A stretch of DNA of 64,000 bases from assembly GCF_003334815.1 (NCBI RefSeq), contig NZ_QOWO01000022.1; one strand, written 5' to 3'. A program made the position numbers. This document shows, piece by piece, positions 57,001 through 64,000 of the stretch (position 1 is its first letter; the number at the start of each line of letters is the position of its first letter). The DNA is from Escherichia coli. Lineage in GTDB: Bacteria; Pseudomonadota; Gammaproteobacteria; Enterobacterales; Enterobacteriaceae.

Positions 57001-60000
57001 TCTGCACACCCTGAACAAAGTTCTCGCGGGCATCCTGTAAATCCTGCATGCTCATTCTGGCCGCCGTGGCCCGCAGGGCATCAACAAATTTATCCTCGAC
57101 CAGACTACGCAGATCTTCAGGTGTGAGCGTGCGTTGTCCCAGCGTCTGGGCTGCAGTGGATATTCCTTCGGCTGATGGTTTTACCCGAAGAAAAAAGGCA
57201 ACGGCAACATCAACACGCATGCGGTCGCGGGTAATGAGACTTTCAGCCGCTGCACGACTGACTTCCAGCTTCAGGGTGTTCATGTTGACGGGAATTGTTT
57301 CGTGAAAAATGGGCATAACAATTGCGCCGCCACTCATTACCACTTTTTGGCCTCCCAGACCTGTGCGGACAAAGGCCTGCTCTGCCGATGCCCGACGGTA
57401 CAGGCGGGCAAATATCAGCCCGATAACGAACAGGGTGAGGACCAGCGCAATAACGGTAAACAACCATCCCGGAAGATTAAACATAGTGAGAACCTCTGTA
57501 TATGTCGGGATTAAAGAACATCCGGCCAGGGATTCAGTTCGCCCAGCCAGCGGGAACCGGAAAGACGGCAGACAATAATCACTTTGTCTCCTCGTCTGAA
57601 TTCTTTCCCGGCCTCCGGCTCCAGCAACAGGTAATGAACCTGCCCAAAGCGGTCTGTGAAGCGACCTTCACAGGGGGAACCCGCCACTGCGTGATAACCG
57701 GTGATGGTGGCCATACACCCGATGAAAGCCTCCTCGGTGAGCGCCGTTGTTTCATCACGGGGTAACCAGGGGGCAATCAGTCTGCCGGTGCGGTGTACGA
57801 GAGGACATGTCAGCAGCAGGCAAAGTGGTGCAAGGAGAATGTTCGGGGCTGGAGCCTGCAGCAGATGAATAATAAGACCCTGCAGGAGAATGCCGGATAT
57901 ACCAAAAAAACCTGCCAGCATACAGAGGACGATCAGCAGGGGGATCCGTCCGATGTTCAGCCAGTCCAGCGCCTCTCCTGTCAGCCCCTCCGGTAAATCA
58001 GGTGTATCCATAGCTGAAGAGAGGGAGTGTCCGCAGAGCAGGGCGATAAGTTCAGCGATACCAGTAAGCAGAACAAAAGTCAGGGCTGCCAGATAGGGTG
58101 CGTTATACGCGGTAAGTAACGTCAGTGTCATTTTTCCTCCTGTGGCAGGTCAGTCAAACAACATTATGGCGTGAAGCTTCCGCTTCTTTAATTGTCAGAA
58201 GAAGCATATCGTCAGTCATCAGAAGACAAGGGGATGTCTGCAGGAGGGGATGATAACAACAGAAGCCTCACGCCGGAATGCGCTTTATGACAACCGGAGA
58301 GGACGGATAATAAAAAATGGGACATCCACATCAGCAAACCGCGATTTGCGAAAAAAAGTCAGCGGAGAGTGGCTGCCGTTGTGGCTGTCCCGGTATTTCA
58401 GTGTAACAGGTGATTGCTGTGATCTATGCCCCATTCGGCTTTCGGTAAACCTGAATGCCCCACATGAAGAATGCGTGACAGCATGTTTCTGCCGCTGCCG
58501 TTCAGGCTGCATTCGCGTCCGTGCGCGAGTATAAAACCTTCATCCCGGAATATCTCTTCCACTTCTGAAGATTCGAGGGATGCCGGATGAATTAATGAAA
58601 ATGCCACCGGTCTGAGCATTCTGCCCGTGGTGGAAAAGGTGTCTCTGGTACTGTTCAGCTGCAGGATATGACGTTTACCTGTTTGCGCACGGGAAAGTGT
58701 CTCACTCAGCAGCTGGTCGTTCCATGCGCACGTGCCAATCTGCCATCCCAGACTTCTGCACGCGGAAAGAGCCGAGCGGAAGCGGTACAGGTCGTATAAT
58801 GCTGCGTTATTGCCACTTTCCAGCAGTGATTTCAGGGTGTTTGCTACCGGTATGTCTGAATTGGTGGCCAGCAGTTTTCGCAGGGTAGTGAACTCTTCAG
58901 CCATTCCTCTGAACTCGCGCATCTGACGGGCAGTGTCAAGCCAGTTCAGCAGGTAACGCCGGCGACGCCGTTCGTTGTTTATGTTGTCCGGGGCGGTGGA
59001 GAGTGCTTCGAGCATATTCTCCAGTAACAGAATGACAGGGTTTTCCTGGGATAGAATGGTCATAAAGGCGTCCTGAAAAAATGCCCGACAGCCGCTCTCC
59101 GTACACCCTCAGGTGTCACCGGTGCCGGGCATTGTGGAAACAGAAGGGAAAAAAATCCCGGCCATAAAGGCCGGGAAAAGTCGTCAAATTAAGACAGCAA
59201 TTTTCATGTCAACGCTCCGTCATCAGATACCAGGTGCAGGAGCAGGGCGATCCTCGACTCCGGCAGAGGCTGTGCATCAAGCCGGAGGAGGTACTGGTAA
59301 CGCGCTTTTGTCAGCCAGAGGGTGGAGGCAGCATCCAGCTCCTCCCTGGCTGCCGGATTGAGCGCAGGATCCGGGTACACTTTCATCAAAGACTGAACGA
59401 TATCCTCCCTGACGGTTTTGATTTCACCGGCCATTTTCACGAAGTCCAGAAAGGCACTGTGACGGCGAAGGTGAGTGAAGCTGTGGCGTTCGGGGTCTGC
59501 TTTCAGGAAAAAGTAACCGGGAAACACGGCGTGTATATGTCGACGGTAACCACAGACTTTATCCGTGCGGCGGACCTTTTTCAGTATCAGGGGTGTCCAG
59601 GGAAGGACGTGTTGTTCGGAAAGCCAGGAAAAGAGATGTTCGCGGTTTTTGCCGGCAGGGATGTACTGAGCCAGATACCAGTTGCGTTGATGTAATTCAC
59701 TGATATTCAAAATCCGGAACGCTCCGCGAAAATCGATCCCCGCAGAGGGGCTTCGATGTTGTTGTGAACGGCGAATACATAAAGCATGTGTCGGAAACAG
59801 CGGCTGACCCTCGTTCAGCCCGGCCTGCAGTTCTGACAGGCACATGATTTACGCACTCTTGTAAGCCTTGTGGACGGTTTCGAGGCGGGCGAAAACCGAC
59901 AACTCCTGCAAACAGGATTAATGGCTGGCAAATATATTACATAAGGATGTATCTGTGGCAAGAGTGAAGATAAGCAGTTAAATAGATCGTTATATTTGAT

Positions 60001-63000: not shown

Positions 63001-64000
63001 GCTACAGACATTGATTCCAGAAACAAGTCATCATCAAGCAGTCATGAATATGATTCAGTTTTATCATTTCAATTTATTTGTGATAATGGCAAAGAAATAA
63101 ATGTGAATTTAACAAATTGGAACATTAACATATTTCCAGGTCAAGAGCTTATTATTTATTTTGTGGAAAACTCAAAGAAAAATAAAAAAATACCATACAT
63201 GATAAAAAACAAAAGCACATCGGAAGTGACTAATAATGTTCAAGAAATGTATAAAGAGTTTTTTTATACATCATACTTCAAACTGATAATACCTTTCCTG
63301 TTAATCATTTCTTACTTTATGTCATCCATATCTGTGGCTATCATGTCATTCGTTTTATATGTCATAATCAGAAGAAGAATAGGAAAAGATTTCTTTTCAG
63401 AAATAAAAATGAAAAGGTTAAAAAAAGAAGATATCATGGGGTTAGAGCACGTAATATAGGGGCGACTGGTTCTTATAAGGGACCGTCTAGTTATCGCGGT
63501 AGGGTGTACTCCCGCGCTATACGGTGTTTTCAGACCGCCCGTTGAAGCAGGAACCAGACGCTGAGCAATCAGCCGTCACCCACTAATGGGAATCCCCCTC
63601 CTGAGTCACGAAGTGCGAAGGTGGGGGAGGATGTCAAGTGTGCAGTATCAAAAAACTGTATCACTGGTATAATCCAGTAAAGAGCATATTGAGAACTTAT
63701 TATGTCGTCACGCAACTCTGTACATGATTTTATAATGCTGCTCCCGGTGCTACTGTTGGTCGGGTGGGTAGTTTTTGTGATAATTCTCATGTTTCGGGAT
63801 GATAAATGTGACAAAACTTACCGTGAAGGTTCGTTTCCCGAATTTATTTGTCTCCATTCTGATCGCTCGTCACTTCGAGAAACCGATTCTGAGAAACTCA
63901 TTGTCAACTATACAGAAATACAGGTATACAATCAGGAGAATAGGTAAAATCCATAATACTATAGCTAAAAAAATATATACGGGGATCAGGCGTCTGTATG

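Follow-up and report, generated by a model that had tools for sequence, protein, structure and literature searches.

The closest described relatives of the locus are the replicons of the I-complex plasmids (IncB/O of the pMU720 type; IncI1 of R64 and ColIb-P9) and the IncFII replicons of R100 and R1. Descriptions of the I-complex replicon and of its K2/Z clade of repA are given in PMC10286972 and PMC6361801, and the replicon of plasmids pO26-CRL125 and pO111-CRL115 has been published as IncZ (PMC3817090); the IncZ phenotype, as cited in the latter paper, is incompatibility with IncB and compatibility with IncI1 and IncK. That the IncZ RepA is FII-like is, according to a secondary citation (PMC5304414), already in the literature.

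The window (the whole stretch of DNA that was analysed, 64 kb of an Escherichia coli plasmid of roughly 100–127 kb) was compared with both groups. With IncB/O and IncI1 it has in common a predicted promoter, stem-loop I (loop UUGGCG), a putative RNAI gene, stem-loop III and both arms of the pseudoknot, as well as a 29-aa leader that overlaps the rep gene by 13 nt; these plasmids are likewise devoid of copB, carry an I-type transfer system, and have a post-origin block 92–94% identical to that of the window. Their initiator differs (RepZ/RepA of 343 aa vs 290 aa here; 24% identity over 100 aa), their origin could not be aligned with 60587–61785, and R64 DNA gave no match to 60562–61787, so that neither a RepZ-type initiator of the IncI1 kind nor its cognate origin was found. 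With IncFII the likeness is reversed: RepA1 of R100/R1 is 87% identical at the amino acid level, and repA, CIS and oriR, including the DnaA box and its surroundings, are ca. 85% identical at the nucleotide level, whereas the CopB (84 aa), CopA (106 bits on the Rfam model) and Tap (24 aa) that R100 carries upstream are all missing from the window, and the F-type backbone of R100 (MOBF, MPF_F) is unlike the MOBP/MPF_I type of the plasmids identical to the window over this region. Of the IncFII hallmarks, the RepA1-type initiator and an oriR with DnaA box are thus present, and CopA/CopT, CopB and Tap are not. We are highly confident that the region is an IncZ replicon (IncK2/Z clade) of an E. coli I-complex conjugative plasmid, i.e., a natural mosaic of an I-complex control module and an IncFII-type replication module.

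Control region

The following elements were located upstream of and around the repA start; promoters and transcript ends are predictions.

60208–60236, plus strand: predicted promoter of the repB-repA mRNA, TTTTCA-17-TATATT (consensus scan)
60383–60458, minus strand: predicted RNAI (Inc RNA) antisense gene, ends approximate (fold and promoter)
60385–60535, plus strand: PK-repZ regulatory leader, stem-loop I and distal pseudoknot partner (Rfam RF01087)
60393–60444, plus strand: stem-loop I, target of RNAI, loop with TTGGCGGAA (14-nt perfect inverted repeat; consensus fold)
60417–60424, plus strand: pseudoknot arm in the loop of stem-loop I, TGGCGGAA, complementary to 60527–60534
60471–60560, plus strand: repB/repY leader peptide ORF, 29 aa, by analogy translationally coupled to repA
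60527–60534, plus strand: distal pseudoknot arm, TTCCGCCA, 8-nt perfect complementarity to 60417–60424
60531–60552, plus strand: stem-loop III, sequestering the repA start (GTG at 60548; consensus fold)

The stretch 59846–ca. 60575 is 90–94% identical to the IncB/O and IncIγ/K1 control regions (BLAST); BLAST of 59846–60586 gave no similarity to copB-copA-tap of R100, and no match to R100 lies upstream of 60587. The I-complex DNA comprises the promoter, stem-loop I with RNAI, the pseudoknot, the leader peptide, stem-loop III and the repA start with its first 7–13 codons; by nucleotide similarity the control module (ca. 60200–60575) is that of the I-complex. Both hexamers of the putative repB-repA promoter are kept in all five I-complex sequences, R64 included, and their flanks diverge, a pattern which suggests function.

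The first-pass annotation had named a CopA/CopT stem-loop; a stem-loop is indeed present at 60393–60444, but its identity is a different one. The region matched the full-length PK-repZ model (RF01087) at 173.5 bits (E=2.8e-39; gathering score 44), and the CopA model (RF00042) at 37.5 bits on the minus strand (E=6e-5), under the gathering score of 60; in the control, R100 gave 106.3 bits for CopA and 22.5 bits for PK-repZ. The helix of stem-loop I is marked by compensatory changes at six pairs (consensus fold, five I-complex replicons). The minus-strand RNAI fold (−32.1 kcal/mol, z=−5.4) is a stem-loop followed by a U-run, terminator-like, and a promoter TTGAAT-18-TATACT is predicted for it on the minus strand at 60493–60464. 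The distal pseudoknot arm, invariant in 5/5 I-complex sequences, overlaps the 5' arm of stem-loop III at the 5' edge of that structure and precedes the start codon of repA by ca. 14–21 nt; stem-loop III itself consists of nine pairs across five replicons, eight unchanged and one varying only from GC to GU. As a separate observation, the loop of stem-loop I and the adjacent bases are closer in sequence to IncB/O than to K, which fits the incompatibility phenotype of IncZ.

The leader ORF that overlaps the rep start had been taken for tap. It is of the RepY/RepB type: 29 aa, 22/29 residues identical to R64 RepY and 27/29 to IncK2 (22–27/29 across R64, B/O, K1 and K2), with the length and the 13-nt overlap with the rep GTG the same in 5/5 replicons; neither a similarity to R100 Tap (24 aa) nor an alignment with the tap region of R100 was obtained.

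Initiator, origin and junctions

60548–61420, plus strand: repA, IncFII RepA1-type initiator, 290 aa, N-terminus (VAALNQTS...) of I-complex type
60568–60587, plus strand: left recombination junction, I-complex to IncFII-like, within repA codons 7–14
61421–61585, plus strand: CIS-like spacer of FII type between repA and origin (aligns with R100)
61586–61796, plus strand: oriR-type origin with DnaA box TTATCCACA at 61596–61604
61786–61796, plus strand: right junction, GCACCTCCCAC, common to R100 and I-complex plasmids (multiple alignment)
61797–62263, plus strand: conserved post-origin block (R64 93.7%, B/O 92%, K1 89%)

The repA1-type gene and the DnaA-box oriR of the first-pass annotation were both confirmed. 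RepA passes the incFII_RepA equivalog TIGR03474 (568 bits vs cutoff 446.9) and is 87.3% identical to R100 RepA1, and its identity to R64 RepZ and B/O RepA is 24% (E=0.003, 100 aa aligned); the two latter proteins match only the broader model NF040977, not TIGR03474. The segment 61421–61796 is 72–92% identical to R100 per 50-nt block, and 61421–61585 presumably acts as CIS, an assumption taken from what is known of R1. The origin (61586–61796) aligns with R100 oriR at 82–92% identity, vs 30–35% with R64, B/O and K1 in a forced alignment, and its DnaA box matches the consensus. Taken together, 60587–ca. 61796 (repA starting near codon 14, CIS, oriR) is ca. 85% identical to R100 at the nucleotide level.

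BLAST matches to I-complex plasmids stop at 60567–60575, and those to R100 and to thousands of other IncFII sequences start at 60587; R100 matched 60587–62263 at 85.7% identity, and R64 matched only 60278–60561 (79%) and 61788–62263 (93.7%). In the multiple alignment, past 61808, the identity to R100 drops to 45–50% and that to B/O and R64 rises to 92–98%; within the post-origin block, 61797–61890 is of I-complex type and 61890–62240 is common to I-complex and IncFII plasmids. A backbone chimera had been proposed, with the replicon joined to a transfer system of other origin. A chimera is present, but since only ca. 60587–61796 is FII-like and I-complex sequence is back after 61796, its junctions lie within the replicon and not between replicon and transfer backbone: as read from the alignments, it is a ca. 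1.2-kb FII-like RepA-ori cassette in an I-complex frame. The mosaic probably arose via recombination at two short conserved patches, repA codons 7–14 and GCACCTCCCAC (61786–61796).

Search for copB and for a second replicon

The absence of a CopB-like ORF stood up to a sensitive search, a diverged copB included. R100 CopB used as a tblastn query (E≤100) against the whole window gave a best E of 0.92 and nothing credible in 59846–60547; neither the three upstream ORFs nor nine stop-to-stop segments (at least 39 aa, both strands) matched any NCBIfam model, while R100 CopB, the positive control, scored 144.6 bits on NF010256. Copy control by CopA alone had been suggested; control by an antisense RNA with no CopB-type repressor is what the sequence predicts, but the RNA would be RNAI and not CopA. 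Since an I-type antisense-RNA module would drive the IncFII-like RepA and origin, the missing copB is normal; copB is likewise absent in all I-complex replicons examined. A second I-type rep gene was sought in the 64-kb window with R64, B/O and K1 RepA (tblastn), and no match at E≤1e-3 was obtained.

Flanking DNA and transfer backbone

59204–59845, minus strand: traB, NusG/RfaH-like transfer-gene regulator, flanking gene outside the replicon
59982–60113, plus strand: three WWAGATCGTT repeats at 59982, 60043 and 60104, exactly 61 bp apart, in a GATC-rich intergenic stretch
62369–62904, plus strand: Phd/YafN-like antitoxin (62369–62620) and RelE/StbE toxin (62617–62904) (TIGR02385, RefSeq annotation)

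The replicon had been drawn as beginning at 59204, within an interval 59204–64000; the first ca. 640 bases (59204–59845) of that interval are minus-strand traB. This gene is named "NusG family protein" by RefSeq in identical plasmids, gives weak RfaH/NusG NCBIfam matches, and is 68% identical (nt) to the R64 NusG-family gene adjoining traC. The R64-like tra/pil genes reported earlier are borne out by synteny, the window being collinear with R64 from trbC through traB. A backbone of the R64 (IncI1) type with a swapped replicon was considered and rejected, because the tra genes are only 67–75% identical to those of R64 and the pil genes gave no match at the DNA level; this fits the B/O/K/Z cluster of I-complex backbones described in PMC10286972, and by sequence relationship the tra/pil backbone is of the B/O/K/Z branch of the I-complex.

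The RelE/ParE-type toxin-antitoxin pair was likewise verified (TIGR02385, 34.6 bits vs cutoff 27.9); it has been described as a unique toxin/antitoxin system (PMC3817090) and lies in a low-GC island (GC 27–46%), which is accessory DNA outside the replicon. PADLOC returned no match for the pair, for the 181-aa and 81-aa ORFs of the low-GC island, or for the flotillin/NfeD pair.

The WWAGATCGTT repeats between traB and repA are invariant across the Z, K2, B/O and Iγ/K1 loci, and their spacers vary; further GATC sites are found at 60067, 60240 and 60263, that at 60240 just 3' of the −10 hexamer of the predicted repA promoter (60231–60236). Conservation and spacing are what the sequences show; the element might be an undescribed Dam/SeqA- or protein-dependent transcriptional control of the divergent traBC/repBA promoters, a CopB-analogous layer in I-complex replicons; we regard this as unlikely.

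Replicon identity and alternative explanations

The segment 59850–62000 (2151 bp, including all of repA) is 100% identical to pO26-CRL125 (NC_022996) and pO111-CRL115 (NC_022992); with seven other records, nine complete plasmids are identical over the 2151 bp. The K2/Z clade is defined by repA of >95% nucleotide identity to the reference pO26-CRL125 (PMC6361801), and the identity of repA here to NC_022996 is 100%; the call of Z rather than K2 is based on identity to this published IncZ reference. Typing as IncFII, which the first-pass annotation implied, was not obtained: in PLSDB, plasmids with an identical region are assigned either to IncK2/Z only or, in two cases, to IncK2/Z plus IncQ1, the latter being a defective transposon-borne remnant (PMC3817090). 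Inside the replicon, no difference was found from the IncZ replicons of pIE545, pO26-CRL125 and pO111-CRL115, and RepA is shared with them as one protein, WP_000729440.1; IncZ carriers differ only in accessory DNA beyond 62263, e.g., plasmid RCS85_pII of ECOR 3 with another toxin-antitoxin pair. The replicon is therefore the published IncZ replicon (PMC3817090), and no novelty is claimed for it. IncK2 plasmids (e.g., pF16EC0121-1) have the same mosaic (95.6% identity over 59846–62263; RepA 99% identical), but in stem-loop I/RNAI their upper stem and the flanks of the loop differ from the window and match IncIγ/K1; these differences would be expected to underlie the unlike incompatibility behaviour of IncK2 and IncZ.

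The RepA1-type RepA, the oriR-type origin, the failure to find CopB, and the weak CopA-like Rfam match on the antisense strand (37.5 bits) are what an IncFII replicon (repA1, tap, CopA/CopT, oriR) with copB lost or diverged, grafted onto an IncI-type transfer backbone, would be expected to leave. Such a graft is nevertheless very improbable: the region 59846–60586, devoid of BLAST similarity to R100, is 90–94% identical to the IncB/O and IncK control regions, the PK-repZ score stands against a CopA score under the gathering score, the leader is of the 29-aa RepY type and not the 24-aa Tap, I-complex sequence is back directly after the origin, and R100 as well as the nearest true F-type plasmid found both carry copB. 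The IncFII label thus held for RepA and the origin, and the control module is that of the I-complex rather than of an IncFII replicon having lost copB. Nor is the replicon foreign to its backbone, as had been supposed; its type is native to the backbone family, as this replicon structure recurs, with at least 80% of the query covered, in 165 PLSDB records submitted by many laboratories, and all six carriers checked are typed IncK2/Z, MOBP and MPF_I.

These same records bear on an assembly or cloning artefact fusing an IncFII contig with an I-complex contig, for which only the mosaic pattern speaks; with so many carriers, nine identical complete plasmids, and junctions in-frame within repA that leave the ORF intact, we give it practically no credence. 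Ordinary vertical inheritance of an I-complex replicon with no recombination, the likeness of RepA to RepA1 being due to common ancestry, would agree with the match of both R64 RepZ and R100 RepA1 to NF040977 (RepA_IncFII_LM), with the overall homology of the replicon architectures and with the post-origin block common to both families. It is hardly compatible with the abrupt change of identity at the left junction (I-complex from 90–94% to undetectable at ca. 60575; R100 from undetectable to 85–98% at 60587), with the reverse switch at ca. 61796, or with a RepA of 290 aa that is 87% identical to RepA1 and 24% identical to the 343-aa RepZ, and is likewise judged highly unlikely. No sequence feature is at odds with the IncZ mosaic.

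Proposed copy control and implications

By homology with ColIb-P9 and pMU720 (and with the R1 systems), the IncZ mosaic would be controlled as follows. Synthesis of the repB-repA mRNA would be constitutive; translation of repB would open stem-loop III, whereupon the loop of stem-loop I (UGGCGGAA) could base-pair with UUCCGCCA, which lies shortly before the start of repA, and the UGGCGGAA/UUCCGCCA pseudoknot would switch on repA translation. RNAI, acting on stem-loop I, would prevent the translation of repB as well as the formation of the pseudoknot, so that RepA synthesis, and hence copy number, would be set by the dosage of RNAI alone, with no CopB-type transcriptional repressor. RepA and DnaA would then act on the adjacent FII-type origin, RepA probably in cis. 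On this analogy, it would be the I-type RNAI module rather than CopA/CopB that governs incompatibility and copy control.

The initiator is named "incFII family plasmid replication initiator RepA" by RefSeq; owing to this label, a reader or an automated typer relying on the Rep protein only will call IncFII on an IncZ/I-complex plasmid. The practical value of the analysis is correct annotation, and no open question is moved forward by it. With both junctions mapped to within ca. 20 bp or less, the locus is a clean textbook case of modular replicon evolution, in which control and Rep-ori modules are swapped at short conserved patches.

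Contents of the interval 59204–64000

The interval holds several separate things, of which the replicon is only a part:
59204–59845, minus strand: traB, NusG/RfaH-like transfer regulator of I-type plasmids, outside the replicon
59846–60547: intergenic and leader region, 700 bp
60548–61420: rep gene, 290 aa
61421–62263: non-coding DNA with the origin, ~850 bp
62300–64000: low-GC island carrying a toxin/antitoxin pair (Phd/YafN-like antitoxin, RelE/StbE toxin) and small uncharacterised ORFs

Low-GC island (62300–64000): GC falls to 27%; a 181-aa ORF (62914–63459), hydrophobic in its C-terminal half, gave no NCBIfam match, and neither this ORF nor an 81-aa ORF at 63702–63947 was matched by PADLOC. 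The island is the counterpart of the 3-kb low-GC fragment of pO26-CRL125 with its unique toxin/antitoxin system (PMC3817090); ECOR 3 plasmid RCS85_pII has another TA pair at the site of the Phd/YafN–RelE/StbE pair.

Rep gene, origin and absence of CopB

RepA: The rep gene encodes a RepA1-type initiator; it passed the NCBIfam incFII_RepA equivalog TIGR03474 (568 bits; cutoff 446.9), and its product was 87.3% identical to RepA1 of the IncFII reference R100 (residues 7–290), compared with only 24% over ~100 residues (E = 0.003) for the 343-aa RepZ/RepA initiators that R64 and an IncB/O-type plasmid encode.

Origin: 61421–61796 was aligned with R100 CIS and oriR (72–92% identity per 50-nt block) and contains the consensus DnaA box TTATCCACA at 61596–61604. 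By itself such a box is weak evidence (3 in the window; 0.5 expected), and it counts because it lies inside oriR-homologous sequence.

CopB: R100 CopB was searched by tblastn against all 64 kb (best E = 0.92); the upstream ORFs and the stop-to-stop segments (39 aa or longer, both strands) gave no NCBIfam family match; the positive control, R100 CopB itself, scored 144.6 bits on NF010256. The first-pass annotation of repA1, oriR and a missing copB is thus borne out.

Leader RNA and control elements

Leader: The Rfam model of the pseudoknot-containing leader of I-complex rep mRNA, PK-repZ, was matched over its full length at 60385–60535 (173.5 bits, E = 2.8e-39; gathering score 44), whereas with CopA, the model of the IncFII antisense RNA, the antisense strand scored no more than 37.5 bits, under that model's gathering score of 60; R100 as control gave 106.3 on CopA and 22.5 on PK-repZ. 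The leader ORF (60471–60560, 29 aa) is identical to R64 RepY at 22 of 29 residues and overlaps the rep GTG by 13 nt, as in all five I-complex replicons compared (window, IncK2, IncB/O, IncIγ/K1, R64); R100 Tap, of 24 aa, is unrelated. The labels CopA/CopT and Tap had therefore to be replaced by PK-repZ and a RepY-type leader peptide.

Stem-loops: The consensus fold of the five I-complex leaders placed stem-loop I at 60393–60444, with pairs changed on both sides at six positions, and a conserved stem-loop III at 60531–60552 that takes in the repA GTG at 60548. The loop sequence TGGCGGAA of stem-loop I (60417–60424) is perfectly complementary to TTCCGCCA (60527–60534) at the 5' edge of stem-loop III.

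Promoters and antisense RNA: The antisense strand was computed to form a strong hairpin (−32.1 kcal/mol, z = −5.4) with a U-run behind it, and a promoter TTGAAT-18-TATACT is predicted ahead of the hairpin at 60493–60464; together they give a candidate antisense RNA (RNAI) of about 70 nt. A sense promoter is predicted at 60208–60236, both hexamers being conserved, even in R64.

GATC-rich element (59982–60266): Between traB and the rep promoter lie 6 GATC sites in ~280 bp (window mean 2.5 per kb). Three WWAGATCGTT repeats (59982, 60043, 60104), exactly 61 bp apart, are the sole matches in 64 kb and are invariant in the IncZ, K2, B/O and Iγ/K1 loci, with variable spacers; in R64 the corresponding position holds a separate group of 9 GATC sites within ~250 bp. 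The element could be Dam/SeqA-sensitive, or could hold regulator sites for the divergent traBC/repBA promoters.

Mosaic structure

BLAST of 59846–62300 against reference loci gave a sharp pattern:
59846–60567: best match an IncIγ/K1-typed plasmid, 93.9%
59846–60575: best match an IncI1/B/O-typed plasmid, 90.1%
60278–60561: R64, 79%
60587–62263: R100, 85.7%

Left of 60587, nothing in this segment matched R100, and in thousands of PLSDB IncFII plasmids the match (83–87%) starts only at that position. The control region was matched over at least 80% by 524 records, IncK2/Z plus other B/O/K-type (~90–94%).

Junctions: Alignments placed the left junction at 60568–60587, repA codons 7–14; the RepA N-terminus VAALNQTS is akin to the I-type VAGLKNTS, and RepA1 sequence follows soon after. 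A five-way alignment placed the right junction, on the origin-distal side, at 61786–61796, on the 11-nt patch GCACCTCCCAC common to R100 and I-complex plasmids; past it identity to R100 falls to 45–50% and that to B/O and R64 rises to 92–98%, and ~61890 to 62240 is conserved in both families. From these junctions, the IncFII-like part is a ~1.2-kb cassette of RepA body, CIS and oriR inside I-complex DNA, as read from the alignments. The left junction follows closely on the last of the control elements, and the right one falls just beyond the origin, so each functional module is intact.

Post-origin block (61797–62263, ~470 bp): 89–94% conserved in R64, B/O and K1 plasmids and, from ~61890, also in R100 (84–100% per 50-nt block); strong GC-rich hairpin at 61911–61939; abrupt stop at 62263, where plasmid-specific DNA starts. 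The block may have served as right-hand homology for module exchange.

Proposed copy control

The anatomy observed fits the I-complex copy-control model (PMC10286972, PMC10724649 and references therein). By homology, translation of the leader peptide would open stem-loop III, and the pseudoknot would then form and activate rep translation; RNAI bound to stem-loop I would block both steps and therefore, alone, set copy number and incompatibility. RepA would then work through the FII-type CIS and oriR cognate to it.

Other features of the window

Type I toxin-antitoxin loci: Rfam AgrB (49.3 bits) at 3184–3273 (minus) and sok (124.5 bits) at 13722–13878 (plus) lie ~10 kb apart, whereas in R64 dqlB and Hok/Gef (pnd), which correspond to them, are ~1 kb apart; the DNA separating the two loci in the window had no match to R64. 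The insert 5189–13208 between the two loci holds a 1387-aa autotransporter at 5189–9352 (minus; 251 bits on the beta-barrel domain TIGR01414), an ECs1377-family protein at 10307–10930 and a 518-aa phosphoethanolamine-transferase-like ORF at 11652–13208 (CptA/EptA models, all below cutoff). The autotransporter probably corresponds to the serine protease autotransporter described as novel in pO26-CRL125-type plasmids.

ORF 14166–15752 (minus, 528 aa): sigma-70 region-4-like segment (residues ~132–200) and TnsA-like endonuclease segment (residues 332–440), every match under family cutoffs; the domain combination is unusual.

Flotillin/NfeD pair (55790–58131, minus): the stretch separating traC from the pil cluster holds a gene of the flotillin family (564 aa) and one for an NfeD-like OB-fold protein (206 aa); several of the B/O/K/Z plasmids examined have the pair, and the equivalent R64 region lacks it.

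Relatives and transfer backbone

The replicon feature is already known and was published as an IncZ replicon (PMC3817090). Praszkier et al. are said to have described in 1991 an IncZ RNAI and leader region common to IncB and IncK, with an IncFII-like RepA and origin. The segment 59850–62000 is 100% identical in nine PLSDB records, including pO26-CRL125, pO111-CRL115, pH2332-107 and ECOR 3 RCS85_pII, and at least 80% of it is spanned by 165 records; PLSDB/MOB-suite typing of those checked was IncK2/Z, MOBP, MPF_I. The IncK2 plasmid pF16EC0121-1 shows this mosaic too, at 95.6% identity over 59846–62263, and differs in a K-type upper stem of stem-loop I. The IncK2/Z reference of Zhang et al. is pO26-CRL125 (PMC6361801). 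A second I-type rep gene was not found within the 64-kb window, and related full plasmids carry, besides the main replicon, at most one defective, transposon-borne IncQ remnant (PMC3817090). Of the earlier interpretation, the FII-like RepA and origin, the lack of copB and control by antisense RNA only are retained; the IncFII replicon assignment and the chimera boundary between replicon and transfer genes are not.

Backbone: Several complete plasmids, e.g. NZ_CP027600.1 and NZ_CP104118.1, match 44000–64000 at 100% identity, and 35000–59845 is covered to at least 80% in 270 plasmids. Gene order in the window follows that of R64 between trbC and traB, yet the tra genes share just 67–75% identity with R64 and the pil region has no DNA match to it; the transfer system, called R64-like in the first-pass annotation, is thus I-type and not R64-like in sequence. 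The backbone type is the B/O/K/Z "cluster 2" of PMC10286972, and from these comparisons the replicon is native to the B/O/K/Z plasmid family.
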